Part shown: in pieces, positions 30,058 through 51,785 of the stretch
Numbering within the stretch: the stretch's first letter is position 1
Layout: each line of letters begins with the position of its first letter
Source: an uncultured Gemmatimonadales bacterium
GTDB lineage: Bacteria > Gemmatimonadota > Gemmatimonadetes > Longimicrobiales > RSA9
Direction: 5' to 3'
DNA: 64,000 nucleotides
Assembly: GCA_963783305.1 (NCBI GenBank)
Contig: CAWAMW010000011.1
Location: 105,318 to 169,317 of the forward strand
The notes under the pieces: generated by a model
The model's database searches: none
What the model was told of the DNA's origin: nothing
Seen by the model: the letters and a program-made list of their open reading frames with translations, nothing else
Program-made: the position numbers and the translations under genes

Positions 30058-30987
30058 ATGAGGAGCGATCTGCTTCCGTCCGCGGCGAAGTACGGCCCCG
30101 AGAGCACGGGGATCGGCTCCACATCCGGAGCCGATCCCCGTTCTGCTATGTGGGCCACGGCGGTGGCGCCGCTCGACCTCGGCCGGCCGCGGATCATGGG
30201 GATCCTCAACGTCACCCCCGACTCGTTCTGGGACGGCGGGCGTTACGAGGGCGTGGACGCGGCGCTGCGGCGGGCGGAGCGAATGCTCGATGAGGGCGCC
30301 GACCTCCTGGACGTGGGCGGGGAGTCCACGCGCCCGGGAGCGGTCCAGGTCCAGGGCGCTGCCGAGCGTGATCGGGTAGTGCCGGTCGTGGAGGCGCTCG
30401 TGCGCGAATGGCCCCGGGTGCTGGTGTCCGTCGATACCGTCAAGGCCGAGGTGGCACGCGCGGCCCTCGATTCGGGTGCCGCGGTGGTGAACGACGTTTC
30501 TGGGTTCCGGCTGGACCCCGACCTGGGACCGCTCTGCGCCGATCGCCGCGCGGGCGTGGTTCTCATGCACTCGCGCGGCTCCATGGAGCAGATGGCGAGC
30601 TACGACACGGCCGTGTACGGGGCGGACCCCGTGGGAGAGGTGGTGGCCGAGCTGGAGGCGGCGCTGGCGCGTGCCCGGAGGGCGGGCGTGGACGACCAGG
30701 CCATCGTCCTGGATCCGGGACTGGGGTTCTCCAAACGCACGGCGGACAGCGCCGCGGTCCTGCGGTCGCTGGACCGGCTCCTGGCGTTGGGCCGACCCGT
30801 GCTCCTCGGTCCGTCTCGGAAACGCTTCATCGGGGAGCTGGCGGGGGGCGTTCCCCTGGAGGAGCGGCTGAGCGGGACGGTGGCCGCGTGTGTGGTGGGG
30901 TATCTCGCCGGCGCACGGATCTTCCGGGTCCATGACGTGGCGCCCGTACGGCAGGCGCTGGCCGTGGCCGAGGCGGTGCGCCCGTGA
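30058..30987 (+). CDS. folP: Dihydropteroate synthase
   Basis: MGILNVTPDSF, GGESTRPG, DPGLGF, SRKRF, RVHDV; start uncertain. Confidence 0.95.
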   Translation: MRSDLLPSAAKYGPESTGIGSTSGADPRSAMWATAVAPLDLGRPRIMGILNVTPDSFWDGGRYEGVDAALRRAERMLDEGADLLDVGGESTRPGAVQVQGAAERDRVVPVVEALVREWPRVLVSVDTVKAEVARAALDSGAAVVNDVSGFRLDPDLGPLCADRRAGVVLMHSRGSMEQMASYDTAVYGADPVGEVVAELEAALARARRAGVDDQAIVLDPGLGFSKRTADSAAVLRSLDRLLALGRPVLLGPSRKRFIGELAGGVPLEERLSGTVAACVVGYLAGARIFRVHDVAPVRQALAVAEAVRP

Positions 30988-31775
30988 GCGACCTGTTCGA
31001 CGTCCTCTACCGCTACGAATTCCTGCTGCCCGGCCTCTGGGACATCTTCCAGATCGTCATTGTCGCGGTAGGCATCTTCTACATCCTGAAGCTGCTGGCC
31101 CGGACCCGGGCCATGCAGATGCTCTTCGGACTCCTGCTGCTGGCGGTCATCTACTTCGCCGCGCAGTTCCTCGGACTCGACCTCCTGCGTACGATCCTGG
31201 AGGCCGGGTTCCAGTACGGGGTCATCGCCGCGCTCATCGTGTTCCAGCCGGAGCTGCGGAGCGCGCTGGCCCGTCTCGGTCAGAGCCGGATGCTGCGACT
31301 CTTCAACAAGATGGAGGAGAGCGAAGTGGTGGAGGAGCTCGTGGAGGCCGTCGAGCGCCTCTCCCGGGCCAAGATCGGCGCGATCATCGCCATGCAGCGC
31401 GATGTGGGCCTCGATGAGTATGCCGACACGGGGACGCGGATCCAGGCCCGGGTCTCCAGCGACATCATCCTCAGCATTTTTGCGCCCTACGGCCCGCTCC
31501 ATGATGGCGCCGTACTGGTCAGTGGGGATACATTGATCGCGGCAGGCGTGATCCTCCCGCTCACGCAGTTCCCCGTGGCGGATCGGAGCCTGGGCACCCG
31601 GCATCGGGCGGCGATCGGGCTGTCCGAAGAGACCGACGCCCTGGTGATCGTGGTGAGCGAGGAGACCGCGCAGGTCTCCATGGCTCAGAGGGGTCGGCTG
31701 GAGCGAAACGTGTCCCCGGAACGCCTTCGCGCCACCCTCGCCGGGGTGGCCGGCACAGTGCCGGTACCCGAGTGA
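30984..31775 (+). CDS. cdaA: Diadenylate cyclase CdaA/DacA
   Basis: Three TM helices, VFQPELR, LHDGAV, GTRHRAA, VSEET. Confidence 0.95.
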   Translation: MSDLFDVLYRYEFLLPGLWDIFQIVIVAVGIFYILKLLARTRAMQMLFGLLLLAVIYFAAQFLGLDLLRTILEAGFQYGVIAALIVFQPELRSALARLGQSRMLRLFNKMEESEVVEELVEAVERLSRAKIGAIIAMQRDVGLDEYADTGTRIQARVSSDIILSIFAPYGPLHDGAVLVSGDTLIAAGVILPLTQFPVADRSLGTRHRAAIGLSEETDALVIVVSEETAQVSMAQRGRLERNVSPERLRATLAGVAGTVPVPE

Positions 31776-35781: not shown

Positions 35782-38700
35782 ATGAGATACCCGGAGTTCC
35801 CGGAAACCCACCGAGCGCTGGAGGAGGACGTTCTCCAGCGTTGGCGCGATGAAGAACTGTTCGCCCGCACGTTGGAAGCCACGGCGGAGGGGGAGCCGTT
35901 CGTCTTTTATGAGGGTCCGCCCACGGCGAACGGACGGCCGGGGATCCATCATGTCTTCGCGCGCACGCTGAAGGACCTCGTCTGCCGGTACCAGACCATG
36001 CAGGGCCGGCACGTGACGCGGAAGGCGGGGTGGGACACGCACGGCCTCCCTGTGGAGATCGAGGCGGAGAAGAAGCTCGGGATCAGCGGCAAGCGGGAGA
36101 TCGAGGAGCTGGGCGTCGCCCGCTTCAACGAGGTCTGCCGGGAGAGCGTTTTCACGTACAAGGAGGAGTGGGAGCGGCTGAGCGAGCGGATCGGGTACTG
36201 GCTCGACTACTCCGATCCCTACGTCACGTTCGAGCCCGAGTATATCGAGACGGTCTGGTGGCTGCTCAAGCAGCTGGACGACCGGAACCTCATCTATCGC
36301 GGCTACCGCAGCGTGCCGTACTGCCCACGGTGCGGCACGGCGCTCAGCTCGCACGAGGTAGCGCAGGGCTATCGCGAGGTGGAAGATCCCTCCGTGCATG
36401 TCCTCTGCCGCGTCCTCGGCCTCGACGGCGAGCCGACGGACCGCGCGCTCCTGGCCTGGACCACGACCCCGTGGACGATCCCGTCCAACTCGGCGCTGGC
36501 GGTGAACCCCGATCTCACGTACGCGGAAGTCGAGCACGATGGGCTGCGCGTGGTGGTCGCCGATGCCCTCGTGGAACGCGTGTTCGGAGAGGGGGCCGAG
36601 CCGGTCCGGCGCCTGCCTGCGTCCGAGCTCATCGGCCTGCGCTACCAGCGCCCGCTCGACCTGATCGATGTGGACGACGCCCAGCGGGAGGCCGGCTGGA
36701 AGGTGGTCCCCGCCGATTTCGTGAGCGATGAGGACGGCACCGGGGTCGTGCACATTGCACCGGCGTTCGGTTCCGACGACTACGCGGCCGGGCAGACACA
36801 CAGGCTTCCCATGCTGCGGCCCATCGACGATGCGGGGCGTTTCGAGGAGGGCATCCCGCGGGTGGGCGGGATGTTCGTGAAGGACGCGGACCCGCTCCTG
36901 CTGGCCGCCATGGAAGAGGAGGGAGTCCTGTTCCGGAAGGGTCGGGTGAAGCACTCCTATCCGCACTGCTGGCGCTGCGACAGCCCGCTCATCTACATGG
37001 CCCGGGACTCCTGGTACATCCGGACCACCGCCGTGAAGGAGGCGATGCTCGCCAACAACCGGCGGGTGGGGTGGAACCCGCCGGAAATCGGCACCGGCCG
37101 GTTCGGCGAGTGGCTGGAGGGCAACATCGACTGGGCGCTCTCCCGTGACCGCTACTGGGGCACGCCCCTCCCGGTCTGGCTGTGTGACGCGAACGCGGAG
37201 CACCGCGAGGTGGTGGGATCGTTCGCGGAGCTGGCGGAGCGCGCCGGCGAGCTGCCTTCGGACTTCGACCCGCACAAGCCGTTCATCGATGAGCTGACGT
37301 GGCCGTGCCCCGCGTGTGAGGGCACCATGCACCGCACGCCGGAGGTGATCGACGCGTGGTTCGACTCGGGCGCCATGCCCTTCGCACAGTGGCACTACCC
37401 GTTCGGGGACCCCGACGCCTGGGAGCGCCACTACCCCGCGGACTTCATCGCCGAGGGGCTCGACCAGACGCGCGGCTGGTTCTACAGCCTCATGGCCATC
37501 TCCACGATGCTGGATCCGGAGCCACAGGGGCCGGTCTATCGGAATGTCCTGGTGAACGGACTGGTTCTGGATCGCGACGGGCAGAAGATGTCGAAGTCGC
37601 GCGGCAACACGGTGAACCCATGGGACGCCATCGAGACGTTCGGTGCCGATGCCATCCGCTGGTACCTCGTGACCGTGAGTCAGCCGTGGGCGCCCAAGCG
37701 ATGGGACGAGGAGGCGCTGGGCGAGACTGTTCGGCGCACGTTCGACACCCTGGCGAACACGTACCGGTTCTTCGCCATGTACGCCAACCTGGAGGAGTGG
37801 TCCCCGCCCGAGAGCCCGCATGGCGCCGACCGACCGACCGCTCATGGATCGGTGGCTCCTGTCCAGACAGGCGGAGCTGGTGGGCGAGGTGCGTCGCGCC
37901 CTGGACGGCTATGACCTCACGCGGGCCGCCCGGCTCATCGCGGATTTCGTGGTGGATGATCTGTCCAACTGGTACATCCGCAGGGGCCGCGACCGCTTCT
38001 GGGGATCGGCGGACGCCACCGATACGCGCTCCGCGTTCCAGTCGCTCTGGGAGGCGCTGGTGACCGTGAGCCGGCTCATGGCCCCGATCACGCCCTTTCT
38101 CTCCGACTGGATCCACCGGGCGCTGGGCCTCGAGTCGGTCCACCTCGCCGCGTACCCCGAGCGCCACCAGGGGCTGCGCGACGAGGCGCTGGACGCCGGG
38201 ATGGAGGGTGTGCGCACCCTGGCCAGCCTGGGACGCGCCGCGCGCGAGCAGGTGCAGATCCGCGTCCGGCAGCCCCTCGCCACCCTCTACGCCGTCACCC
38301 CGCGGAAGCTCGATCTTTCCCCGGAACTGCTGGCGGTGCTGAAGGACGAGCTGAACGTGAAGACCGTGGAGTTCCTGGACGTGGCCGAGGAGCTGGTCAC
38401 CCTGGAGGCGAAGCCGAACTTCAGGCTTCTGGGTCAGAAATTCGGCAGCCACACGCAGGAGGCCGCGGCGGGCATCCGCGCGTTGAGCAGCGACGCCCTC
38501 TGGGCGTTCCAGTCCGGGGAGCAGATCGTGATCGAAGTGAACGGCGAGTCCCACGACCTCCAGCCGGACGACCTCGAGATCCAGAAGGTGGCCAGGGGAG
38601 AGCTGGTGGTGGAGACGGGGGACGGCTTCACGGTGGCCCTGGACCCCACCCTCGACCGAGACCTGCGACTCGAGGGACTGGGCCGGGAGCTGGTGAACCG

Positions 38701-38956
38701 AACGCAGCGGCTCCGTCGCGACGCCGGGCTCGAGGTGAGCGACCGGATCGAGCTCTGGATCAGCGGCGACGAGGACGCGGTCACGGCCGCCCGGCTCCAC
38801 GCCGACTACATCACGGGCGAGACGCTCGCCACGACCCTGGAGGTCGCGGCGCCGCCGGAATCCGACGCGATCCATACCCGCGACGTGGAGCTGGACGACG
38901 TCGCGGCGTCCATCGCGCTGCGGCGATCCGGGGGTGGCGATGCCGCTGACGGCTGA
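35782..38956 (+). CDS. ileS: Isoleucyl-tRNA synthetase (type 2), frameshifted near 37826-37840
   Basis: FYEGPPTANG, GWDTHGLPVE, WTTTPWT, KMSKS in 35782-37914; DRWLLS and LSNWYIRR anticodon-binding domain continue in the +1 frame to 38956. Confidence 0.93.
37826..37840 (+). repeat. (CCGA)3.75 tetranucleotide repeat at the ileS frameshift
   Basis: ccgaccgaccgaccg. Confidence 0.85.
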
Positions 38957-39850: not shown

Positions 39851-40808
39851 CGCGCGGCGGCTGGAGGTGGACGAGGCCGCTGTCGGCGAGCGCCTCGACG
39901 CCCACGTAGCGGAGCGGGTACCGGAGCTCTCGCGGAGTCGCGTCGTGCAGCTCATCGGGGACGGCCGGATCCGCCTGAACGGCGCCGAAGCCCGGAAGAG
40001 CGCGCGGCTGGAGCCGGGGGACGTCATCAATGTTGAGATCCCGGACCCGGAGCCGAGCGAGGTCGAGGCGGAGGACATTCCGCTGGAGATCGTATTCGAG
40101 GACCGGGACCTGCTGGTGGTGAACAAGCCGAGCGGCCTGGTGGTTCACCCGGCACCCGGTCATCGGAGCGGGACCATGGTGAACGCGCTGCTGCACCACG
40201 TGGACGACCTGTCCGGCATCGGTGGCGTGAAGCGGCCCGGCATCGTGCACCGGTTGGACAAGGACACGTCCGGTCTGCTCATCGTGGCAAAGCACGACCG
40301 CGCCCACCGCAAGCTGTCCGCGGCGCTGAAGCGGCGCGACATCCACCGGATCTATCTCACCGTCTGCTGGGGCCACCTGGAGGAGGACCGGCTGAGCGTG
40401 GAGGCGCCGGTCGGCCGCTCGAACCGCAACCGGAAGCGGATGGCGGTCGTGGAGTCCGGACGCCGGGCGCTCACGCACTTCGAGCGGGTCCAGCGCTGGG
40501 TCGCCGCCGACCTGCTGCGCGCCCGCCTGGAGACGGGTCGCACGCACCAGATCCGCGTCCACCTCGCCCATATCGGCCACCCGGTCGTGGGCGACAAGCA
40601 GTACGCCGGCGGCGGCGCTCGCGGGATCAGCGGGACGGGACACCTCTGGGCGCGCGAGCTGGAGCGCCGGGTGCCAACCCACTTCCTCCACGCCCATCGC
40701 CTCGAGTTCGAGCACCCCAGGACGGGGCAGCCGATGGAGTTCGAAGCGCCGCTCCCTTCCACCCTGGCGGGGGCGGCCGAATGGGCGGCCGAGACGAGCG
40801 CGCGTTGA
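39843..40808 (+). CDS. rluD: RluA-family pseudouridine synthase (RluD-like)
   Basis: S4 domain, NKPSGLVVHP, HRLDKDTSG, GRTHQIRVH. Confidence 0.92.
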   Translation: MGSARRLEVDEAAVGERLDAHVAERVPELSRSRVVQLIGDGRIRLNGAEARKSARLEPGDVINVEIPDPEPSEVEAEDIPLEIVFEDRDLLVVNKPSGLVVHPAPGHRSGTMVNALLHHVDDLSGIGGVKRPGIVHRLDKDTSGLLIVAKHDRAHRKLSAALKRRDIHRIYLTVCWGHLEEDRLSVEAPVGRSNRNRKRMAVVESGRRALTHFERVQRWVAADLLRARLETGRTHQIRVHLAHIGHPVVGDKQYAGGGARGISGTGHLWARELERRVPTHFLHAHRLEFEHPRTGQPMEFEAPLPSTLAGAAEWAAETSAR

Positions 40809-40834
40809 CCCGTTCCCGTCCGTCGGGATATCTT
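40805..40834 (+). promoter_or_regulatory. Putative sigma70 promoter of the Mgl operon
   Basis: TTGACC-18 bp-TATCTT; same hexamers occur at 51769-51796. Confidence 0.5.
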
Positions 40835-40869: not shown

Positions 40870-43479
40870 ATGATCCAACGGCCCGAGGCCGTCACAGGCG
40901 CCGGACCCGAGGCCGGGGGCCGTCCCCGAGCGGCTCGTCGCTCGGCCATGTCCGAACGCGACGTGTCCATTCTCCGCTCGTTGGCCGACCGCATCGACCC
41001 CGGGGACGCTGGCGCCCACAACAACCTCGGAGTCCTCTTCTTTCAGAAGGGGCTCTTCGACGACGCGGTGGCCGCCTTCGAACGGGCGCTCGAGCTCGAT
41101 CCGCGACTGGAAGTGGCGCGCCAGAACGCCGAGATCGCGTTCAAGGAGAGCGGCCATTTCGAAGAGCGCGTGCGCTCGCTTCGCGAGGCTCTCCGCGCCG
41201 ACCCCGCCAGCGCCGACAGCCGCGACGCCCTCGCCCGCACCTACCTGATGGGCGGCGACCCCGCGAGTGCGGCGGCCGAGTGGACGGCGCTGCTCCGGCA
41301 GTACCCCCAGAGTACTCCGCTCCACATGAAGCTGGCGTACGCGGAAGCCGAACGCGGCCGCGTGCAGGTGGCGGTCCACCTGCTGGAGGAGGCCGCGCGC
41401 CTCTCCCCGGAGTTGGCCGCCGTCCGGCTCCAGCTCGCCGAGCTGATGCTGGACACCGGAATGCCCGTCCGGGCCGAGCGCGAGGTGCGGCGCGCCGTCG
41501 CACTGGATCCGATGGCGTCGCGGGCGCAGCAGTTCCTCGCTCGCCTGCTGGAGGAGACCGGCCGGACGGAGGAGGCCACGGAGGCGCTGGAGCGGGCGAA
41601 GGAGCTGGACCCGGCGGCGGGCAGCTCGACCGGGCATCTGTCCCTCGACCGGTACCGCTCCGCGGCGCGGGCAAAACGCAGGCGCGAGGGTCGGCCCGAG
41701 CCGGTGACAGAGGCGGGGCTCGGCGGTCTGGCACGCGCGACGGAGCTCCGCCGGAACGGCAACCTGCGGGGCGCCGCGGAGGAGCTGGAACGGGAGCTGA
41801 CGGCCGGCGACGCGTCGCTGGAGGTCCGGCAGGCGAGCGCCGAGATCCACCTTCTCATGGGCGACCTCGAGGCGGCGGCCGACGCCTACGGTGCTCTGGT
41901 GGCGGAACGGGAGGACAGCCCCAAGCTCTGGAATGAGCGCGGGGTCGCCGTTCACCGTCTCGCCCGGTTCGATGAGGCCGTGCACGCGTACCGCCGCACC
42001 GTTGCCCTCGACCACGCCTACTCCCTCGGCTGGAACAACCTGGGGGTGGCGCTGGCTCAGAGGGGGGAAGAGGGAGCGGCCGAGCGAGCGCTCCGACAGG
42101 CGACCGCGGGGACGGCGCCGCCCGAGATTCTGTGGAATCTGGGGTTGTTCCTCACCCGCTTGGAGCGTCCTGATGAGGCGGTGGAGACCTATCGGGAGGC
42201 GCTTGAGATCGACCGCTCCTCCGCCGAGTCGTGGGCACGCCTCGGGAGCGCTCTCTTCCAGGCACGAGAGCCGGCGGGCGCACGGGACGCGCTGCTCCAG
42301 GCGCTGGAGCGCGATCCGGATCTGGCGGACGCCCGCTATCAGTTGGGCTTCGCCCTCTCCGCCCTCGGAGACTTCCGCGGCGCGTTGAGGGAGACACAGC
42401 GCGCGCTGGAGCAGGCGCCCGTCATCCCTACCCCACAGTACCAGCTGCTCATCGACGCCCAGTTCGAGGACGGCACGCTCCCAGCGCCCGAGACTACCGA
42501 GGGGGAGCGGGTTCCATCCGGATCCCCCGTGGCCGGGTTCGATTTCGAACCGAAGTCTCTCGACAATGCCTTCGCCGGGTTCAGGCCCCGGGACCCCTCG
42601 CCGGGCACCGCGGAGATCCAGACGTTCGTCGACGAGGGCCGGACCGCGCTCCGCCGTGGCCAGCTCAGGAAGGCCGCGGCGGCGGCAAGCCGCGCGGTGC
42701 GGGCGGCGCCAGAGGCGCTGGATCCGCGGCTGATCGAGGGGGAGGTGCTCCTCCGACAGGGGCTGGCGGGCGAGGCGCTCGAGCGATTCGAGGGCGTGCT
42801 CAGGGGCGAGGCCGATACCCGGCAGGTGCGGGAGGCGCTCACCGGCCGCGCCCGTGCGCTCCTCGACCTGGGTCGAGCCAAGGACGCGATTGCGGCCGCG
42901 CGTGCGGTGGAGGACGCCGGGGGCGGGGGATCGTTCACGGCGCGGGCGCTCCTCGCCGCCGAGCGGTGGACGGACGCAGTGTCGGCGTTCGAGCGGGCGG
43001 TCCAGAACGGCGAAGTGGACGCTACCACCCTGGCAGGGTACGGCAGTGCGCTGCTCGGCGCAGGCCGACCGGCGGACGCGCGAAAAGTGTTTACCCGATC
43101 GCTGGCCACCAGCCCCTCCGTAGCCGCGCGGGTGGGTCTGGGGCAAGCTCTCGAGGCCCTGGGCGACCGCCCTGGCGCCATGAGGGCGTACCGGGAAGGA
43201 GTCACCGCGCTGCCGAGTTACGGCCCGGCCGTCCTGAGGCTCGCCATGGCGGAGTGGCGATCGGGGAAGGCCCAGGACGCCGTCCGATCACTGGTCCAGT
43301 TCCTCGACCTCGACCCGACGCACGTGGCCGCGCTGGTCCAGCTGGGCACCTGGCTCGGAGAGCTCGGACGGGTCGAGCAGGCGCTGCGGTCGCTCCATCG
43401 AGCGTTGAGCCTCGATGCGGGGAACGCAGAGGCGCGCCGGGAGCTCGAGCGCTTGAGCGCCGCCGGAAGGGGGGGCTGA
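40870..43479 (+). CDS. Large tetratricopeptide-repeat protein
   Basis: Many TPR units (AHNNLGVLF...AFERALELDP; WNNLGVAL; ARYQLGFAL); alternative start 40948. Confidence 0.9.
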   Translation: MIQRPEAVTGAGPEAGGRPRAARRSAMSERDVSILRSLADRIDPGDAGAHNNLGVLFFQKGLFDDAVAAFERALELDPRLEVARQNAEIAFKESGHFEERVRSLREALRADPASADSRDALARTYLMGGDPASAAAEWTALLRQYPQSTPLHMKLAYAEAERGRVQVAVHLLEEAARLSPELAAVRLQLAELMLDTGMPVRAEREVRRAVALDPMASRAQQFLARLLEETGRTEEATEALERAKELDPAAGSSTGHLSLDRYRSAARAKRRREGRPEPVTEAGLGGLARATELRRNGNLRGAAEELERELTAGDASLEVRQASAEIHLLMGDLEAAADAYGALVAEREDSPKLWNERGVAVHRLARFDEAVHAYRRTVALDHAYSLGWNNLGVALAQRGEEGAAERALRQATAGTAPPEILWNLGLFLTRLERPDEAVETYREALEIDRSSAESWARLGSALFQAREPAGARDALLQALERDPDLADARYQLGFALSALGDFRGALRETQRALEQAPVIPTPQYQLLIDAQFEDGTLPAPETTEGERVPSGSPVAGFDFEPKSLDNAFAGFRPRDPSPGTAEIQTFVDEGRTALRRGQLRKAAAAASRAVRAAPEALDPRLIEGEVLLRQGLAGEALERFEGVLRGEADTRQVREALTGRARALLDLGRAKDAIAAARAVEDAGGGGSFTARALLAAERWTDAVSAFERAVQNGEVDATTLAGYGSALLGAGRPADARKVFTRSLATSPSVAARVGLGQALEALGDRPGAMRAYREGVTALPSYGPAVLRLAMAEWRSGKAQDAVRSLVQFLDLDPTHVAALVQLGTWLGELGRVEQALRSLHRALSLDAGNAEARRELERLSAAGRGG

Positions 43480-44598
43480 GTGCCCATCGAGGGACCGCTG
43501 AAGGAGCTCGGGATCCAGGACGTGCTCCAGATGCTCGACCTGGCGCAGAAGACCGGCATCCTGACCGTGCGCTCGCAGCGCATGATGGATGAGGCGGTGG
43601 TCCATATGCTGGACGGTGAGCTCGTCTTCGCAAGCCGTCGTCGGTCCATGCGCCTTCTCGGTCAGCAGCTGCTCCGGGACGGGAAGCTGACGGAGAAGGA
43701 GCTCGAGCGGGCGCTCGAAATGCAGCGTCGCGACTCGAAGCAGCGGCTGGGAGCCATCCTCGTGGAGATGGGGAGCGTGGATCGGAGCGAGCTCGACCGG
43801 CAGCTCCGGTTCCAGATCGAGGAGACGATCTACGACCTGCTGGCGTGGGATGAGGGCTATTTCCATTTCGAGGAGACCGACGAGACGCCACCGGGACCCG
43901 TGCGGGTCCGGGTGGATTCGCTCCTGATGGAAGGCGCTCGCCGGATCGACGAGTGGACGCGGCTGGAATCGCGGGTCCCCAGCTCCGACGCCGTGCCCGT
44001 ACTCTTCGCGAAGGAAGGGGACAGCGGGCTCATCGACCTCCGCCCGGAGCAGTGGGAGGTGCTGGCGGAGATCGACGGAGAACGGGACCTCCGCCTGATC
44101 GCCAGCGAGCTGGGGCGGAGCGCGTTCGACGTGGCCAAGATCGTGTACGGGCTCGTGACCATGAACGTGGTCAGCGTCAGCGAGCGCCCGCTGAAGATCA
44201 AGGACGAGGCCCTGATCCCGATCCTCGACGAGCTGGAGCTCATGCTGGCCGATGGCGAGCTGGAGGCGGCCGAGCGGCGCGCAAGGGAGATCCAGAAGGA
44301 GTACCCCGATCGCGTCGAGCTGCCGCTCCTGACGGGCCGCGCCCTCGCCGCTCAGGGCCGGCTGAGGGCCGCCGCCGAATCCTTCGATCGGGCGGTGACC
44401 CTCGACCCGCTGTCCCCGGACGCCCATTATCAACTGGGACTCGCCGCAGCCAGAGCGGGCGAGATCGACCGCGCCATGGAGGCATGGTCCACTTTTCTAC
44501 GGCTGAACCTGGGCGGCGACCGACGCACGTTCGTCGAGGCCGCCTTCGATGCGATGACCGATCTGAAACACGCCCTCGACGCCGCGCCCACGGAATGA
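43480..44598 (+). CDS. DUF4388 domain + MshEN-like motif + TPR protein
   Basis: G.L....I.DVLQML....KTG.L, W.EG.F.F, LLMEGARRIDEW; C-terminal TPR. Confidence 0.8.
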   Translation: MPIEGPLKELGIQDVLQMLDLAQKTGILTVRSQRMMDEAVVHMLDGELVFASRRRSMRLLGQQLLRDGKLTEKELERALEMQRRDSKQRLGAILVEMGSVDRSELDRQLRFQIEETIYDLLAWDEGYFHFEETDETPPGPVRVRVDSLLMEGARRIDEWTRLESRVPSSDAVPVLFAKEGDSGLIDLRPEQWEVLAEIDGERDLRLIASELGRSAFDVAKIVYGLVTMNVVSVSERPLKIKDEALIPILDELELMLADGELEAAERRAREIQKEYPDRVELPLLTGRALAAQGRLRAAAESFDRAVTLDPLSPDAHYQLGLAAARAGEIDRAMEAWSTFLRLNLGGDRRTFVEAAFDAMTDLKHALDAAPTE

Positions 44599-45461
44599 CT
44601 GAACGCGATCTGCAGCGCTGGAGCAGGGAGGTGGCCGAGGACCCCGGCGCCCCCTCGTTCGTCCGCCTGGCCCGCGCGTGTCGCCGGCAGGGCCGGCACC
44701 AGGCCGCACGCGACATCGTGCACGGCGGCCTCACCCGGCATCCCGAGCACGTGGACGCACACGCGCTCCTCGCCCTCATCCATATCGATGGCGGCCAGCG
44801 TCAGCAGGCACGCGACGAGTGGGAGACCGTTCTCCGCCTCGATCCCGGGAACTTCGATGCCAGCCGCGGACTCGGGTTCCTGGCTCTCGAGCGCAACGAT
44901 CTGATCGCCGCCCGCCGTCACCTGGATGCCGCCGCCGCCGCGCGCCCCGATGACCCGGCGGTCTCTCAGGCGCGGCAGGTGCTCGATCGGCGGGAGGACG
45001 CCGCCGCTCCCTCCGACCTCCCGGGCGCGCGCGTCCACACCGGCGCCCGTGACCCCGCGCGCACCGGAGCCCGTGACCCCGCGCGCACCGGAGCCCGTGA
45101 CCCCGCGCGGCTCTTTACCGCCCTCGCCGCGGAGGCCCCCTTCAAGGGCGCCCTCGTGCTCGACGACCAGGGAATGGTCCTGGCCGGAGGACTGGACAGC
45201 GATGCCCTGTCCGATGACCTCCTCGGCGCGCTCCTCACTACCACGGTCGCGGAGGCCAGCCGAACGACCGGAATGCTTCAACTCGGCGATTGGAACGAAA
45301 TGCTGATCGAGACGGATTCGGCCACACTCCACCTTACCGCCCTCCCCGGCGCCGCGGTCCTGGTGGTCGTGGCGGAGCCGGACACGCCCGCCGGATGGGT
45401 GGTTCGGGCCGCCGGCAGGGCGGCGGAGATGGCCCGGCGCTTCATGGAGGTGGGGACATGA
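44595..45461 (+). CDS. TPR + Roadblock/LC7 fusion protein
   Basis: N-terminal TPR; C-terminal GALVLDDQGMVLA...LQLGDWNEMLIE Roadblock pattern; ATGA overlap start. Confidence 0.78.
   Translation: MTERDLQRWSREVAEDPGAPSFVRLARACRRQGRHQAARDIVHGGLTRHPEHVDAHALLALIHIDGGQRQQARDEWETVLRLDPGNFDASRGLGFLALERNDLIAARRHLDAAAAARPDDPAVSQARQVLDRREDAAAPSDLPGARVHTGARDPARTGARDPARTGARDPARLFTALAAEAPFKGALVLDDQGMVLAGGLDSDALSDDLLGALLTTTVAEASRTTGMLQLGDWNEMLIETDSATLHLTALPGAAVLVVVAEPDTPAGWVVRAAGRAAEMARRFMEVGT
45038..45109 (+). repeat. 24-bp coding tandem repeat, three copies (TGARDPAR)
   Basis: caccgg(c/a)gcccgtgaccccgcgcg x3. Confidence 0.95.
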
Positions 45462-45808
45462 ATGGAGCCGTAGAGCGGGCGCTGAGTACGCTGACCCGGA
45501 TCGATGGGGTGCGGGGTGCCATGGTAGTGGACAGAGAGGGAGGGGTGCCCGTCCTGGCGAAGCTGACCACCGGGGTGCCCGAGACGGCGCTGGCGGCCAT
45601 GTCGGGGCTGCTCTTCGGCCGGACCACGGAGGCTTCACAGTCGGCGGGATTCGGCCGACTGGGTGTGCTCCAGCTTCAGGCGGACGGGGGGCATATGGTC
45701 CTGGCGGGGGCGGGACCGCTCCTGGTCGTGGTTTTGACGGAGGCCGACGCGCGACTGGGTCTGGTGCGGGTCCAGGCGGCGCGGGCCGCGGGCGAGCTGA
45801 GCGAATGA
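45458..45808 (+). CDS. Roadblock/LC7 protein (MglB/MglC-like)
   Basis: GVRGAMVVDREGG...LAAM...ARLGLVR; ATGA overlap start. Confidence 0.82.
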   Translation: MNGAVERALSTLTRIDGVRGAMVVDREGGVPVLAKLTTGVPETALAAMSGLLFGRTTEASQSAGFGRLGVLQLQADGGHMVLAGAGPLLVVVLTEADARLGLVRVQAARAAGELSE

Positions 45809-46290
45809 GACGCGAAGATGTGAAGCGCGTGGCCGAAGCACTTGCCGAGCCGATGAAGACGTTCGTGCGGGACTCCCGTGTCCGAACGGCCGTGCTCGTC
45901 AACCGGAGTGGGCAGGTGCTGGCGCACCACGGGTTTGGTCAGAGCTACGACATCGGGAACGTGGCCACACTGGCGGCGGCTGCGCACTCCTCCGCGCACG
46001 CGCTGGCACAGCTCACCGGCGCTGGCCGCTGGATGCACCTCCATCACGCCGGCAAGGAGAACCAGCTCTTCCTGGCGCCCTTCGTCGCCGGCTCCGAGGA
46101 GCTGGTGCTGGTGGCCATCTTCGACAACGATTCCACGCTGGGCCTCGTCCAGCTCTTCTTCGACCGCCTCGCCGAGGCCATCCAGCAAATACCCGAGCTC
46201 GGGGGCGCCCTCGTGCCGGGCGATGTCGAGGCGTTCGAGAGTGATCTCGAGGCGGGGCTCGACCGACTGCTGCCCGAGAGCGGCGACTGA
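45805..46290 (+). CDS. mglB: Roadblock/LC7 protein MglB
   Basis: AVLVNRSGQVLA, ATLAAA, IFDNDSTLGLVQL; directly upstream of mglA. Confidence 0.8.
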   Translation: MRREDVKRVAEALAEPMKTFVRDSRVRTAVLVNRSGQVLAHHGFGQSYDIGNVATLAAAAHSSAHALAQLTGAGRWMHLHHAGKENQLFLAPFVAGSEELVLVAIFDNDSTLGLVQLFFDRLAEAIQQIPELGGALVPGDVEAFESDLEAGLDRLLPESGD

Positions 46291-46892
46291 TGCCCGTGGT
46301 CCAGTACTCTTCTCGGGAGATCCTGTGCAAGATCGTGTACTACGGTCCGGCCAGGAGCGGCAAGACCACCAACCTGCAGTGGGTCCACCGTTCACTCCCC
46401 GATGGGCGGAGCAGTGAAATGGTCTCCCTGGCCACCGAGAACGATCGCACCCTCTTCTTCGACTTCCTGCCCCTCGACCTGGGCGAGATCTCGGGCTTCC
46501 GCACACGGCTCCAACTCTACACCGTCCCCGGCCAGGTCTACTACAACGCTACACGTCGGCTGGTACTGAGGGGCGCCGATGGCGTCGTCTTCGTGGCGGA
46601 CTCGGAGCCACGGCGCCGGCGAGACAACATGGAGAGCCTGCGCAACCTCCAGGAGAACCTGCTGGAGAACGACTTCGACATCCGGGAGCTTCCGCTGGTC
46701 CTCCAGTACAACAAGCAGGACCTGGAGGGGGCCCGGCCGAAGTCCGAGATGGACGACGAGCTGAACTTTCGCGACGTCCCGTCGCACGGGGCGTCCGCCG
46801 TCCAGGGTGTGGGGGTCATTCCCACGCTGCGCTCGGTGAGCGAGATGGTGCTCCACAGCGTATCACGGCGCTTCGCCTCGCCCACGGCCTGA
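46290..46892 (+). CDS. mglA: Ras-like small GTPase MglA
   Basis: KIVYYGPARSGKTTN, DRTLFFDFLP, YTVPGQ, DGVVFVADS, NKQD. Confidence 0.95.
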   Translation: MPVVQYSSREILCKIVYYGPARSGKTTNLQWVHRSLPDGRSSEMVSLATENDRTLFFDFLPLDLGEISGFRTRLQLYTVPGQVYYNATRRLVLRGADGVVFVADSEPRRRRDNMESLRNLQENLLENDFDIRELPLVLQYNKQDLEGARPKSEMDDELNFRDVPSHGASAVQGVGVIPTLRSVSEMVLHSVSRRFASPTA

Positions 46893-46899
46893 CCGCAGC

Positions 46900-48723
46900 A
46901 TGCCCCTAGACCTGGATCCGCGCTTCACCTTCGACTCCTTCGTGGTCGGCCCCGCCAACCGTCTGGCGGTGGCCGCCGCCCGCCGCGTCTCGGACGCACC
47001 CGGCACCACGTACAACCCGCTCTTCATCTACAGCGGGTCGGGGCTCGGGAAGACCCATCTCCTCGGCGCCATCGGTCACCAGATCGAGAGGGTCCATGGG
47101 ATGAAGGTGGTCTCTGACACGATGGAGCACCTCATGGAGGCCATCAGCGCAGCCGTCGAAGCCGGAGAGCGCGACGCCTTCCGGGGGGCGCTCCGGGAGG
47201 CGGGGCTCCTGCTCCTCGACGATGTACAGTTCCTGGCCGGTCAGCGGCAGATCCAGGAAGAGCTGCTCCGCATCTGGGATGCGCTGGCAGCCCGCGGCAC
47301 ACAGGTGGTTCTCACCAGCGATCGCCAACCGCAGGAGATCGACGGAATCGATGACCGCCTCCTGAGCCGGCTCTCCGGCGGCCTCATTGTCGACATCAGC
47401 GCCCCCGACTACGAGACGCGGGTCGCCATCGCCCGGCGAAAGGCCGAAGAGCGCGGGAGCATCCTGGCCCAGGGAGTGTTTCAGTCGCTGGCGCGGATCG
47501 CGTTCACGAACGTGCGGGAGCTCCAGGGTGCGCTGAACCGCATCATCGCCGTGCAGGAGCTCGAGGGCAGGGAAGTCACGCCCGACGACGTGCCGGAGCT
47601 CCTGGGATCCGCCGCCGACCGCGGACGGGACGAGTTCGGCGAGTTCCTCTCCGACATCACCGGCTCGGTGGACGACGTGGTGCAGCGGGCCGACCGCTAC
47701 ATCGCGGACGCCATCCTGGCGTGGGAAGGAGAATCCTACCGCACCCGGCGACTCGACAGCGCTCTCACCGGCCATGTCACCGGGGCGGAGGCGCAGGAGG
47801 TGGTGCGGCGGTTCGAGCAGGACATCGTTCGGCTCCGGGAGATCGAGAACGAGATACGGCAGCTGGACCCGGCAGCCCGGGAGCTCGAGAGTTCCGTGTT
47901 GCGGGACCCCGACCGCGTGGCCGAAGCCGAATCGCTCCTCAGCACCGTCCGTGAGCGCCAGTCACCGCCCCCCGCTCCCCCCGAGGGTCTCGCCCTGGGC
48001 GAGCTGGATGGCGCGGAGACGCTCGCAGTTCGCGCGGCCCTGTCGGTCGCCGACCAGCCGGGCAGCGCGTTCAACCCGCTGTACGTGCTCGGGCCGGCCG
48101 GCTCCGGGCGCTCGACCCTGCTGATCGCCCTGGCCAATGCCCTCGTGGGACGGGGGTTGACGGTGGCGTACATGGACGGCGCCACGTTTGCCGAGGAGCT
48201 GATTGACGCGCTGGAACGGAGCCGCCTCGAGGCATGGCGCGCCCGGCTCAGGGGAGCCGACGTGCTGGTCCTCGACGACCTGCACGAGCTGGCCGGCCTG
48301 GAGCGCGGGTACGAAGAGCTCTTTCACCTCATCGACGGGCTCCACCGGGAGGGCCGCCAGCTGGTGTTCTCCGCCAACGTGCCGCCGCAGGCGCTGCCGT
48401 TCCCATCACGTTTGCAGAGCCGCCTCGAGGCCGGGCTCGTCGTGGAGCTCCAGCCGCCGACCCAACGGCAGGCGCCGACCCCGGACGCGGTGTACGCCGG
48501 ATCCCCGGAACCCGCGGTGGGGGCGGTGGACGGCATGGGGGCGGCTGAGCCGGGTTCCCAGAAGGCCGCGGACCGGCCGGACGCGACGGCAACGAGCGAG
48601 ACCGCGCCTGCCGGCGAACAGGGCCGCTCGGCAAGACACGCCGCGCACTGGATTCTCAGCCGCGAAAAGGTCCTGTGGGAATGGCCCTACTCACAGGACT
48701 GGATCGAGGAGGACCCGGACTGA
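46900..48723 (+). CDS. Tandem DnaA/Hda-like AAA+ protein lacking DnaA domains I and IV
   Basis: Domain 1: FTFDSFVVG, YNPLFIY.GSGLGKTHL, LLLDDVQF, NVRELQGAL. Domain 2: FNPLYVLGPAGSGRST, LVLDDL, RLQSRL. Confidence 0.88.
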   Translation: MPLDLDPRFTFDSFVVGPANRLAVAAARRVSDAPGTTYNPLFIYSGSGLGKTHLLGAIGHQIERVHGMKVVSDTMEHLMEAISAAVEAGERDAFRGALREAGLLLLDDVQFLAGQRQIQEELLRIWDALAARGTQVVLTSDRQPQEIDGIDDRLLSRLSGGLIVDISAPDYETRVAIARRKAEERGSILAQGVFQSLARIAFTNVRELQGALNRIIAVQELEGREVTPDDVPELLGSAADRGRDEFGEFLSDITGSVDDVVQRADRYIADAILAWEGESYRTRRLDSALTGHVTGAEAQEVVRRFEQDIVRLREIENEIRQLDPAARELESSVLRDPDRVAEAESLLSTVRERQSPPPAPPEGLALGELDGAETLAVRAALSVADQPGSAFNPLYVLGPAGSGRSTLLIALANALVGRGLTVAYMDGATFAEELIDALERSRLEAWRARLRGADVLVLDDLHELAGLERGYEELFHLIDGLHREGRQLVFSANVPPQALPFPSRLQSRLEAGLVVELQPPTQRQAPTPDAVYAGSPEPAVGAVDGMGAAEPGSQKAADRPDATATSETAPAGEQGRSARHAAHWILSREKVLWEWPYSQDWIEEDPD

Positions 48724-50342
48724 TGGCGATCAAGGGCAGTCTCCGCGAGGCGGGGCTGGCGGACGTGTGCCAGCTCCTCTCCATGGGCCAGAAGACGGGG
48801 CGGCTATCGGTCACCGACGGCTCTCGCTTCGGACAGATCTATTTCGACCGCGGCCGCATCAATTTCGCCACCATCGTGAACCGGCGCGACCGACTCGGCG
48901 ACCTCCTGGTGCGCGACGGGGCCGTGCGGCACGACCAGCTCATGGAAGCGGTGGACGCGCAGGCGGAGCGGCCCGACCGGCGCCTGGGCGAGATCCTGCT
49001 CGAGCGCGGCCTCATCGACAGCGCCACCCTCACGGCCTCGATCGAGCGGCAGATCGAGGAGGCCATCTACTACCTGTTCACCTGGAAGCAGGGCAGCTTC
49101 TACTTCGAGCCGGGGAAGGCGCCGGAGAGCGGTGAGATCCTGATCCGCGTGAATCCGGAGAACCTGCTGCTCGAGGGCGCTCGCCGAGTCGATGAGTGGG
49201 GCGTGATCGAGAAGAAGGTCCCCTCCATGAACCTCATCTTCGGCCTGGACCGTGAGCGCATGGAGGATGCGGACGTGCAGTTGACGCCGAGTCAGCGCGC
49301 CCTCGTGCCGCTGATCGATGGCGACCGTACGGTGGAGGACCTGGCAGAGGAATCTGGGCTCGGGGAGTTCGCCACGGGAAAGGCCCTCTACGGGCTGATC
49401 CAGGCCGGCTTCGCGTTCCGCGTGGGCCGCCGGGCCGGCGCGGAGCCGGTGGAGGCCGGGGATGTGGACGAGGCTCGAAACCTGGGCGCCGCGTTCTACG
49501 AGACGGCGATGCTCGATGACGCCGAGCGCGAGTTCCGCCGGGCGCTGCGGAGTCGCCCGCACGACGTCACCGCCCGGCACTTCATGGCGCTCATCGCGCT
49601 GCGGAAAGGTGAGGCCGCCGAGGCGATCCGGCGCCTCTCCGCCCTCCTCGAGGACGCCGGACCACGGACCGGCGTGTTCCTGAACCTGGCCTTCGCACTC
49701 CGACTCGAGCGTCGGTACTCCGATGCACTCCGCGTCCTCGACGCGGCTCAGAAGTCCGCGCCGAACGATCCGCGGGTCCGGCTCGCGCGGGGCGCGACCC
49801 TGCTCTTCGCGGGCGAGATCGCCGCCGCCGCCGAAGCGCTCGACGAGTACCGCACCATGCTCCACCCCGACACGCTCCCGCCCGCGCCCTACTACTACTG
49901 CGTCGGGCTCGCCGCCACCGTGGCCGGCCGCATGGAGGACGCCGACGCTCTCCTCGATGAGGCGCTCGGGGCCCATCCCGCATCGCCGCCGCTCCACCTC
50001 CTGGCCGGGAACCTGGCGGAGAGGCGGGCCGATATGGCGGCGGCCGAGCGCTCCTACCAGCAGGCCGCCGAAGAGGACCCGGCGCTCGCACAGGCGCATC
50101 GAAATCTCGGCGACCTGGCAAGCCGGCGGGGCGTGGACCGAGAGGCCCTCGAGCACTATCGCCGGGCCGCCGAAGTGGACGCCTCGCTGGGGGACGAGCT
50201 CTACATGCGGCTCGCCGACCTGCACTACCGCCACAACGCCCGGGAGGAGGCGATCCGCTGCTGGAGGCGTGCCCTGGAGCTGAACCCCGGGAACCAGGTG
50301 GCTCGGAACCACCTCGAGCTGGTGGCCCGTGCCGCCCGCTGA
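48723..50342 (+). CDS. DUF4388 domain + MshEN-like motif + TPR protein
   Basis: IKGSL....LADVCQLL....KTG.L, WKQGSFYF, LLLEGARRVDEW; long TPR tail; TGATG coupling. Confidence 0.82.
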   Translation: MAIKGSLREAGLADVCQLLSMGQKTGRLSVTDGSRFGQIYFDRGRINFATIVNRRDRLGDLLVRDGAVRHDQLMEAVDAQAERPDRRLGEILLERGLIDSATLTASIERQIEEAIYYLFTWKQGSFYFEPGKAPESGEILIRVNPENLLLEGARRVDEWGVIEKKVPSMNLIFGLDRERMEDADVQLTPSQRALVPLIDGDRTVEDLAEESGLGEFATGKALYGLIQAGFAFRVGRRAGAEPVEAGDVDEARNLGAAFYETAMLDDAEREFRRALRSRPHDVTARHFMALIALRKGEAAEAIRRLSALLEDAGPRTGVFLNLAFALRLERRYSDALRVLDAAQKSAPNDPRVRLARGATLLFAGEIAAAAEALDEYRTMLHPDTLPPAPYYYCVGLAATVAGRMEDADALLDEALGAHPASPPLHLLAGNLAERRADMAAAERSYQQAAEEDPALAQAHRNLGDLASRRGVDREALEHYRRAAEVDASLGDELYMRLADLHYRHNAREEAIRCWRRALELNPGNQVARNHLELVARAAR

Positions 50343-50757
50343 CAAGAGCGGCTCGGGCCGGCCCAGGGAGGGCCCGCAGAACGAACGGGCCCGCGCCCTC
50401 GTGTGGAGGAGCGGAGATGCCCTCCTGGCCGTTCCTCTGGCCGCGGTGCTGGAGATCGCCGCCCCCGACGCCGACGGGCGCGTTCGGAGCCGCGTCGGGT
50501 CCCTCCCTGTCAGCACGGTCCCCGGATTGCCGCCGGCCGCGAACCCACCCCGCGCGGTCGTGATACGGGCGGGAGGCGCCACCGTGGCTCTCGCCGCGGA
50601 TGATGTGGAAGGGGTTCGCGAGTACACCGCGCGCGAGAGTGCCCGCACACCGCCCTGGCTCCGGCTGCTCAACATTGACCATCTCGCGGGTCTGGTGAGG
50701 CTCGACGAGGGTCGTGTCGCCGCCCTGCTCGCCGTCGAAACCCTGCACCCGTCGTGA
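50329..50757 (+). CDS. CheW-like domain protein
   Basis: LAVPLAAVLEI, VALAADDVEGV, LAGLVRL...ALL.VE.L pattern. Confidence 0.65.
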   Translation: MPPADKSGSGRPREGPQNERARALVWRSGDALLAVPLAAVLEIAAPDADGRVRSRVGSLPVSTVPGLPPAANPPRAVVIRAGGATVALAADDVEGVREYTARESARTPPWLRLLNIDHLAGLVRLDEGRVAALLAVETLHPS

Positions 50758-51785
50758 ATCCGCCGCGACGCGGTCGTTGCGCCAACCGGCGGCTCGTTCC
50801 CGCCGCGCTGCTGCTCACCGCCTTCTGTGCCCTCGCGACCTCCTTCGCCCCTGTGTCCGCCCAGGATGCGGTCCGGGCCGGAGAAGTGACGCTCCACTTC
50901 TGGCCACAGCAGCGGGCGCTCGCGACGCAGATCGTTACGCGGATGGCGGAGCAGCTTCCGCTCCCCGCACTGCCCGATTCGGTCCTCGTCGGCGGCACCG
51001 TCGACGTGTACCTGGCCTATGATGCAGCGCGGTGGGACAGCCTTACCGGCGGTGCGGCACCGGAGTGGGGCGCGGGTGTCGCCGACCCGGCCGCGGGTCT
51101 CATCGTCCTCCCGACCTTCGACTGGGAGCGCACCCCGCCGCACACGATCTACCGCACGCTCCGGCACGAGCTCGCCCACGTGGCGCTCCAGCGCTACCTC
51201 GGCGAGGCCAGAATCCCGCGGTGGTTCAGCGAGGGGTACGCGCAGTGGGCGGCGGGGGAGTGGCGCTGGGAATCCGCATGGCAGCTGCGGATGGCCTTCG
51301 TCCGCAGCGACTCGCCGCCCCTCGACTCCCTGACCCTCCACTGGCCCGTCGCGGAGACCGACGCTCGCCTGGCGTACCTGCTGTCTGCCAGCGCCGTGGC
51401 CTACCTGGTGGAGCGAAGCGGTGAGCGGGGCATTCGCATCCTGCTGGAGCAGTGGCGGGAGGATGTCGACTTCGATGCCGCCTTCCGCTCCGTCTACGGC
51501 CTCACGATCGGCCAGTTCGAGGAAGACTGGCGGGCGTACGTGAAGCGCACCTACGGCTGGACCGTCGTCCTCGGCCACTCCCTCTTCTTCTGGGTGATCG
51601 CCGCCGTCCTTCTGCTGGTCCTCTTCTTCATTCGACGACGACGCGACCGCGCCCGACTCGACACGCTCAGGGCCACCGAGCCCCCGGACGATCCCGCCTA
51701 CTGGGAGATCGACTTCGACCCGCCGCTTCCGCCCCGCCCCGGCGAACCCGCGCCGCCGGGTCCGCACGTTGACCCGGGCGGATGA
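50754..51785 (+). CDS. Peptidase MA-like (gluzincin) metallopeptidase, membrane anchored
   Basis: Signal peptide, HELAH...PRWFSEG, C-terminal TM helix followed by RRRR. Confidence 0.82.
   Translation: MNPPRRGRCANRRLVPAALLLTAFCALATSFAPVSAQDAVRAGEVTLHFWPQQRALATQIVTRMAEQLPLPALPDSVLVGGTVDVYLAYDAARWDSLTGGAAPEWGAGVADPAAGLIVLPTFDWERTPPHTIYRTLRHELAHVALQRYLGEARIPRWFSEGYAQWAAGEWRWESAWQLRMAFVRSDSPPLDSLTLHWPVAETDARLAYLLSASAVAYLVERSGERGIRILLEQWREDVDFDAAFRSVYGLTIGQFEEDWRAYVKRTYGWTVVLGHSLFFWVIAAVLLLVLFFIRRRRDRARLDTLRATEPPDDPAYWEIDFDPPLPPRPGEPAPPGPHVDPGG

Follow-up and report, generated by a model that had tools for sequence, protein, structure and literature searches.

The gene considered here occupies positions 46900 to 48723 of a 64,000-nucleotide stretch of DNA (the window) from an uncultured Gemmatimonadales bacterium, whose genome comes from a soil metagenome. 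Its 607-amino-acid (aa) product is composed of two modules of the domain III type, the AAA+ domain of DnaA, and is called the tandem DnaA-III protein. Judged by sequence, it combines a known domain in a new architecture. The gene sits in an operon that also encodes MglA, roadblock, TPR, and chemosensory (Che) proteins and, directly downstream, a PATAN-MshEN-TPR protein, referred to below as the partner (Table 1).

The mglA stop codon and the tandem DnaA-III start codon are separated by 7 nucleotides, and the stop codon of the tandem DnaA-III gene overlaps the start of the next gene. Pfam matches Bac_DnaA in two stretches of the protein, with no N- or C-terminal DnaA family at E<=0.01. Domains I and II are absent, domain III beginning at residue 5. 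PF08299 (domain IV) does not match the protein, and a domain IV profile of our own did not match the family members listed. Two domain III modules without domain I or IV had been described in the initial annotation, and this layout is borne out by Pfam; all the motifs quoted there are found in the translation. A canonical, full-length dnaA is present on contig C2 and carries the sole Bac_DnaA_C match of the genome. The genome thus has the tandem DnaA-III gene in addition to a canonical dnaA, which supports the earlier proposal of a repurposed DnaA paralogue.

Domains 1 and 2 share 36% identity over 151 columns. The AlphaFold2 model (mean predicted local distance difference test, pLDDT, 83.5) has two AAA+ cores and no second lid: a core and lid at residues 1-236, a helical region at 246-354, a second core at 375-516, and disorder at 523-590. 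Its predicted template modelling score of 0.47 leaves the packing of the domains unsure. The best structural matches of the model are DnaA domain III structures. A second lid hidden by a frameshift was rejected: a profile built from lid-bearing homologues matches the lid of domain 1 (E 1.6e-8) and finds nothing in the three frames of 48400-48730.

Table 1. Features of the tandem DnaA-III gene and its operon, in window positions
Feature	Position	Strand	Basis or remark
869-aa TPR protein, then second PATAN-MshEN-TPR protein (43480-44598)	40870..44598	+	
TPR-roadblock (44595-45461), roadblock (45458-45808), MglB-like (45805-46290)	44595..46290	+	
mglA paralogue of the operon	46290..46892	+	
Tandem DnaA-III gene, 607 aa	46900..48723	+	Open reading frame (ORF), Pfam, AlphaFold2
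Domain 1 (residues 1-236), DnaA AAA+ core and lid	46900..47607	+	
Acidic amphipathic helix motif (residues 244-257, EFxxFL)	47629..47670	+	pLDDT low on its own; kept in mini-proteins
Helical repeat, one ~97-aa copy, WxxEGY type (residues 266-355)	47695..47964	+	
Domain 2 (residues 375-516), DnaA AAA+ core, Walker A GSGRST, lid-less	48022..48447	+	
Disordered linker replacing the second lid	48466..48657	+	pLDDT<50; mean column conservation 0.24
Conserved C-terminal tail (residues 587-607, REKxxWxWP...DxxxEE), predicted TPR-groove ligand	48658..48723	+	
GAGGAGG in the tail Glu codons, resembling a Shine-Dalgarno site of the gene that follows	48706..48712	+	
PATAN-MshEN-TPR partner, 539 aa, directly downstream	48723..50342	+	PATAN (DUF4388), MshEN insert at residues 57-110, TPR array
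TPR groove touching the tail in the model (partner residues 282-493)	49566..50201	+	
Lone CheW-like gene and peptidase-MA gene	50329..51785	+	

The two ATPase domains

Domain 1 is intact and possesses K51, D107/D108, D141 (sensor I), R153 (box VII), R157 (arginine finger), and R206 (sensor II). It is ~46% identical to the genome's own DnaA. Its sequence matches Bacillus subtilis DnaA (8BV3) with an E of 2e-54, and its fold superposes on DnaA domain III at 1.9 A over 232 columns. Among the 157 two-domain homologues, which span 40-85% identity, K51, D107/D108, D141, and R206 are present in all, with counts of 155 for R153 and 152 for the finger R157.

In domain 2 of this protein, the Walker A residue is Arg404, the sensor I Asp is gone, and there is no lid. 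Box VII R504 and the arginine finger R508 are kept, as are I435, R447, R469, and E473. Although the P-loop drifts across the two-domain homologues, R504 is found in 157/157 and R508 in 155/157; the sensor I Asp is missing nearly throughout. Every one of the 42 forms with a lid on domain 2 has the P-loop Lys. The 115 lid-less forms have GK (63), GR (23), or another pair (29). Domain 2 is probably dead as an ATPase in this lineage.

The initial annotation proposed one active and one pseudo-ATPase domain, which fits this lineage but is not general. It is contradicted elsewhere in the family by the 42 homologues with both the P-loop Lys and the lid in domain 2, and by four Longimicrobiales short forms that lost domain 2 and have a degraded domain 1. 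Likewise, the reported Lys to Arg change in Walker A is present here but is a trait of one sub-lineage; the P-loop counts reject it as a fixed design of the family.

Family distribution and a natural deletion series

A search with residues 230-607 found 295 proteins, which refutes an assembly fusion as the source of the tandem architecture. The named ones among the 120 matches listed belong to Longimicrobiales or other Gemmatimonadota and are filed as DnaA or DnaA/Hda, a warning to annotators. By the distribution of its homologues, the tandem DnaA-III protein is a class-wide Gemmatimonadetes family. The PATAN-MshEN-TPR gene is found in 93 of 131 genomes drawn from the phylum, and 92 of these also have the tandem DnaA-III protein or a mini form of it; in the remaining genome (G111), the locus is interrupted by contig ends. 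Two unpublished genomes (G026 and G093) are among the 92. Together with G020, G021, and G024, they supplied a few of the rows in alignments and in one tree, and no claim depends on them.

The family alignment holds 173 sequences, of which 12 partial ones were set aside. The others are made up of 42 with two lidded modules, 115 without the second lid (as here), and four without domain 2. In more divergent members, domain 1 is degraded too. Six genomes in three genera have mini forms, which are ORFs of 55-85 aa containing only the acidic helix and the Trp tail, immediately 5' of the PATAN-MshEN-TPR gene. Together, these forms are a natural deletion series of two ATPases, one and a half, one, and none. 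The MshEN insert is present in 50/50 partners beside ATPase-bearing forms and is cleanly deleted in 4/5 aligned partners of mini forms. The loss of the ATPase coincides with the loss of MshEN in two genera.

The mini-ORFs lie at 8927-9148 of locus L076, ~9827-10042 of L077, ~8778-8987 of L078, 1398-1655 of L204, 3403-3585 of L205, and 1447-1626 of L206; ORFs of this size are easily overlooked by annotation. Absence of the gene in G072, G083, and G141 was rejected, as a mini-ORF was found there. A frameshift from sequencing, at a run of G, likely explains a split form in G153, where the neighbouring gene is broken too.

In 5/6 genomes of two other families in the phylum, a single DnaA-III domain is followed by an acidic linker and a look-alike tail. 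These genes precede a TPR-only gene that resembles the TPR array of the partner, and no mglA stands alongside. The tail profile does not score these single-domain relatives, and their tail likeness was judged by eye. At their loci (L198-L202), the single degenerate DnaA-III and TPR genes are located beside dapF and glycosyltransferase genes; GGDEF, CheR, and CheW genes are near one of them.

Comparison with the DnaA and Hda families

Domain 1 has the features of DnaA domain III, i.e., an AAA+ fold with Walker A and B, sensors I and II, box VII, and the arginine finger. The TIGR00362 score is 384.9, above the cut-off of 343.9, but only as the sum of both domains. The origin cluster with dnaN (recognised by eye) is occupied by the dnaA of contig C2 and not by the tandem DnaA-III gene. 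The DnaA-box consensus has 0 matches in the 64-kb window, with 0.15 expected. The Hda models are missed, with scores of 155.3 for TIGR03420 (cut-off 194.8) and 59.5 for NF005982 (cut-off 268), and the protein has two AAA+ domains, not the one of Hda. A clamp-type motif is found near either end in 1/173 sequences, and that one is truncated. By these tests, the tandem DnaA-III protein is a member of neither DnaA nor Hda. As encoded, without domains IV and I, it has no possible reading of DnaA boxes or recruitment of helicase.

The residues that bind single-stranded DNA (ssDNA) were compared separately. In the text of PMC10721633, bases are captured in B. subtilis DnaA by Asn187, Ile190, Ile193, Arg202, Lys222, and Glu228, and the Arg202/Glu228 pair reads guanine. 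For E. coli DnaA, the text of PMC5742627 gives Val211 and Arg245 for ssDNA and Arg281/Arg285 for oligomerisation; these numbers were mapped by a constant offset on the alignment columns. Canonical Gemmatimonadota DnaA keeps the I/V, K, and N of the H/B motifs in 17/17. Domain 1 lacks the motifs, its columns holding an H-motif Ser and a B-motif Gln (Ser83, Gln117, Gln115, Glu80). In domain 2, I435 and R469 remain, but the residues of the K and N columns do not. In the two-domain homologues, the Ile190 column of domain 2 is I or V in 153/157, Arg202 is kept in 156/157, and Glu228 in 154/157. The Lys222 column is kept in 39/41 lid-bearing forms and lost in lid-less ones.

Operon and gene neighbourhood

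The downstream partner is a predicted MshEN receptor of cyclic di-GMP (c-di-GMP). Its MshEN insert scores 46.4 bits with NF053729 (cut-off 38) and contains the tandem RLGxx...Q motif; a tandem RLGxx motif is described as the c-di-GMP site of MshEN in the text of PMC5013675. Among 50 homologues of the partner, the first motif is a strict RLGxx in 33 and RLG in 45.

Neighbours were tallied in 80 genomes with listed coordinates, leaving out the genome of the window, unpublished genomes, and those with contig breaks at the locus. The PATAN-MshEN-TPR gene directly follows in 80/80. The mglA gene precedes in 74/80. Two more have a diverged mglA in its place, three count as unchecked, and one (G039) is without. 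In G034, outside the tally, the gene pair is kept with no mglA within 20 kb. The PATAN-MshEN-TPR gene is the tightest partner because of these counts, and mglA was rejected in that role. The link to mglA drawn in the initial annotation thus stands as adjacency in 74/80 genomes, but the closer association is with the gene downstream. Most genomes have a second mglA elsewhere; here it is located on contig C16 (L085 6468-10669) after dnaX-ybaB-recR-roadblock.

CheB and/or CheR genes are found downstream in 10/14 related loci scanned, where relatives carry CheR/CheD/CheB/CheW; upstream, CheA and CheC genes were verified at one related locus. The genome of the window has one CheW at the locus, two other Che clusters, and a PilB.

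Three minor features of these operons were recorded. A sigma-70-like site, a consensus match only, is located at 40805-40834 before the 869-aa TPR gene. GntR and hydrolase genes interrupt the operon between the partner gene and cheR in one complete genome (L068). An AAA_22 gene stands among the Che genes of L084.

The C-terminal tail

The Trp/acidic tail noticed in the initial annotation is present, and its conservation was confirmed: W595 is found in 161/161 full sequences, and E589 and K590 are almost invariant. Little can be concluded from the acidic end because its Glu-Glu codons double as the ribosome-binding site of the next gene. Across 52 loci, the last six codons have GAG:GAA at 87:3, versus 2165:507 in gene bodies.

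Tail residues 576-607 were folded with the whole 539-aa partner and with three controls. The tail-partner model scores 0.74 and the best control 0.02. The mark used is reached by 116/157 solved and 2/215 mismatched pairs and is rough for alignments of our own. Model runs agree in >=77% of contacts, and the partner has a pLDDT of >=67. Contacts are confined to the TPR array (282-493) and include N321 with I602/E603, Q457/R460/N461 with K590, and Y392/P423 with W595. The tail is thus predicted to lie in the TPR groove of the partner. This prediction, and the survival of the tail after the loss of both ATPase domains, support the earlier suggestion of a scaffold with a TPR-binding tail. A second docking site is probably formed by the acidic helix (244-257), with MglA, a roadblock protein, and another TPR protein of the operon as candidate partners.

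The linker repeat and related proteins

Run over 1.84 billion representatives, a profile made from residues 244-355 had 462 matches, the best 150 of which include long proteins in which the stretch is repeated 4-25 times (P0121-P0151 and others). Of 29 repeat proteins scanned, five have a DnaA AAA+ domain after the repeats and no domain IV, with zinc ribbons at the end of four of these. DUF835 or KaiC-like domains are found in others, and one of the repeat proteins bears the name Ca. Wallbacteria. The ~97-aa repeat has no matching Pfam family. The reciprocal repeat profile scores the tandem DnaA-III protein at E 1e-8, and the profile-profile probability between repeat and linker is 98.8%, versus 1.9% for the reversed control. 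A fold search with the linker found generic helical bundles (best Z 6.3, none with Z>=8), and Atlas gave no usable match.

A repeat-DnaA protein used as the query found 45 proteins. Among them are a repeat-DnaA-DUF835 form and P0300, named Thermoplasmata archaeon, in which DnaA-III is fused to a type II/IV secretion (pilus) ATPase. Eight further ones, of 1867-1999 aa, have MshEN followed by two DnaA modules. The order MshEN, DnaA-III, long helical region, second DnaA-III was recorded for P0289-P0296 and P0309 (1.9-2.0 kaa). These MshEN-DnaA-DnaA proteins are without domain IV, and a relative is named Ca. Fermentibacteria. No tail or docking helix was detected in the archaeal-type (Thermoplasmata-type) and MshEN-fused proteins over 720 aa. 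Likeness of the archaeal-type N-terminal domain to PATAN is a lead only (hhalign E 0.09; Atlas DUF2226 0.88, PatA_N 0.84). Scans for archaeal-type or MshEN-fused loci found one canonical DnaA locus in genomes and 80 loci in metagenomes, 79 of them with domain IV.

The tree was made from 42/120 rows, a set without Hda sequences. The archaeal-type and MshEN-fused modules are one starred group (98/95). Domains 1, domains 2, and the single-domain forms come together (87/83), with long branches. The domain 2 sequences stand as a group of their own (100/98), and the duplication is therefore older than the split of the sampled orders. The duplication in the MshEN-DnaA-DnaA proteins is, from these groupings, independent of that in Gemmatimonadetes. 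In the approximately unbiased (AU) test, grouping with the archaeal-type modules (p=0.43) and with canonical Gemmatimonadota DnaA (p=0.50) were both retained.

Proposed function

The tandem DnaA-III protein is probably an ATP-switched adaptor or scaffold of a polarity-chemosensory module of c-di-GMP, MglA, and Che proteins, and not a replication protein. This reading is based on the partner gene in 80/80 genomes, the mini forms, the tail model, the kept domain 1 residues, the Che genes, the loss of MshEN along with the ATPase, and the independent fusions of domain-IV-less DnaA modules to MshEN, the pilus/secretion ATPase, and the repeat. The tail would dock on the co-translated PATAN-MshEN-TPR protein, in its TPR groove. 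ATP-bound domain 1 may self-assemble head to tail via its arginine finger, as expected from DnaA biochemistry. Such an assembly would display many tails together and could cluster the c-di-GMP receptor near the MglA/MglB switch and the Che proteins, and ATP hydrolysis would dissolve the cluster. Domain 2 may bind ATP poorly here yet still present its arginine-finger face; it could lengthen or cap the assembly, or set off ATP hydrolysis by domain 1. The docking motifs would be the core of the adaptor, tuned by a dispensable ATPase part.

Several observations weigh against the adaptor. Domain 2 retains residues that bind ssDNA in DnaA, and most Che genes have been lost from the operon in this genome. 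The Glu-Glu of the tail partly encodes a ribosome-binding site. The pass of the complex model may reflect likeness, as TPR-peptide complexes are common among solved structures, and the tail was modelled with the downstream partner only, one of four TPR proteins encoded in the operon. Conservation of interface columns does not differ significantly from that of other TPR columns (0.58 vs 0.55, p=0.18); in one mini-form partner, just 3/10 key interface residues are kept. The genomes are also kin, so that the counts show conservation and overstate independence.

A broader proposal is advanced more tentatively, with the chances slightly against it. The DnaA AAA+ module may be a mobile signalling switch, an ATP-controlled polymerising scaffold on a shared helical-repeat stalk, used in Gemmatimonadota, Ca. 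Fermentibacteria, and Thermoplasmata. In Gemmatimonadetes, it would cluster a c-di-GMP receptor by the tail-TPR contact and thereby set the MglA/Che site.

Thermoplasmata initiate replication with Orc1/Cdc6, and the similar domain-IV-less modules in proteins named Thermoplasmata archaeon would argue against a regulator of replication. Such a regulator, with domain 1 or 2 bound to filaments of ATP-DnaA as an Hda-like finger donor or cap and the tail linking initiation to the MglA/c-di-GMP polarity module, is unlikely. It would be in keeping with the intact box VII, finger, and sensor II of domain 1, the ~46% identity to the genome's own DnaA, the DnaA/Hda labels given by annotators, and a PF00308 search that found no Hda-like gene in the genome. 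However, the clamp-type motif is missing near the ends of 172/173 sequences, six genomes lost both ATPase domains and kept the rest of the gene pair, and several lineages have lost finger or sensor residues from domain 1. Co-assembly with true DnaA, also suggested in the initial annotation, is less likely.

It is very doubtful that the protein is a sensor that relays a signal to the TPR/c-di-GMP/MglA module after ssDNA, RNA, or a guanine dinucleotide has bound to the base-capture surface of domain 2 and, in part, domain 1. The kept Ile190, Arg202, and Glu228 columns of domain 2, and Lys222 in lid-bearing forms, speak for such a sensor. The same columns line the protomer interface, however, and may be kept for assembly; Asn187 is not kept, the Lys222 column is lost in lid-less forms, and several lineages lost domain 2 outright. 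In the text of PMC5742627, ssDNA binding by DnaA is much weaker without anchoring by domain IV.

Domain 1, domain 2, or both have decayed repeatedly and independently, which would suit an adaptor in which only the helix and tail matter and the AAA+ domains are spacers or static dimerisation modules with no signalling ATP turnover. Such an adaptor is improbable, as passive spacers would not keep catalytic residues near invariant in 157 homologues, and ATPase loss accompanies MshEN loss in two genera.

Relation to known systems

To our knowledge, the known initiator-clade AAA+ proteins (DnaA, Hda, DnaC/DnaI, IstB, Orc1/Cdc6) all act on DNA. The adaptor reading would make the tandem DnaA-III protein a DnaA engine that does no work on DNA and is fixed in the polarity/chemosensory operon of a class that is abundant in soil and has cultured members. 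If true, its function would be of a new kind, a replication engine reused for polarity/chemotaxis-type signalling.

Structures of DnaA domain III are available from B. subtilis (8BV3/8BTG), Thermotoga maritima (2Z4R), and Aquifex aeolicus (1L8Q/2HCB/3R8F). Domain 1 shares their sequence, fold, P-loop, Walker B, sensors, box VII, and finger. Unlike DnaA, the tandem DnaA-III protein is without domains I, II, and IV, has a duplicated module, lost the ssDNA H/B residues of domain 1, gained a repeat, docking helix, and tail, and is encoded away from the origin cluster. Like Hda/HdaA of RIDA (DnaA's regulatory inactivation), it has a DnaA-type AAA+ domain without domain IV, and the finger face of domain 2 outlasts the nucleotide chemistry. 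Unlike Hda, it is far closer to DnaA (PDB E 1e-54 vs 3e-4), has no N-terminal clamp site, possesses two domains, and belongs to a signalling operon.

Known MglA polarity hubs (PMC7519303, PMC3983030) include MglA-MglB-SgmX of Myxococcus and the MglA hub of Bdellovibrio, with TPR adaptors and c-di-GMP input. The operon resembles these hubs in its MglA, roadblock proteins of the GTPase-activating type, TPR, and chemosensory genes. It differs in having the parts gathered in one operon and in the DnaA-type ATPase, which is not reported in those hubs. Group 1 MglA is assigned to Gemmatimonadetes in the main text of PMC4316618, where 'DnaA' occurs 0 times.

As with MshE/PilB-type ATPases, MshEN is paired with an ATPase, in trans here and by fusion in MshEN-DnaA-DnaA proteins. 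Unlike in MshE/PilB, the ATPase is an initiator-clade AAA+ and not a traffic ATPase, and MshEN sits inside a PATAN domain. The Thermoplasmata-type and MshEN-DnaA-DnaA proteins also have domain III without domain IV, the same repeat before the ATPase, and signalling-type partner domains; their DnaA ssDNA residues are better kept than those of the tandem DnaA-III protein. The shared repeat connects the Gemmatimonadetes family with archaeal DnaA-like modules. A literature search, with supplementary tables outside its scope, found no description of the tandem DnaA-III family, of Thermoplasmata-type DnaA fusions without domain IV, or of MshEN-DnaA-DnaA proteins.

Other features of the window

A CdaA diadenylate cyclase is encoded at 30984-31772, after ftsH-folP and 9 kb upstream of the operon. 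The ileS gene (35782-38956) occupies two overlapping frames, with the break near 37815-37835, next to a short ccga repeat. Two relatives have ileS as a single ORF, and the split here is probably an assembly indel.

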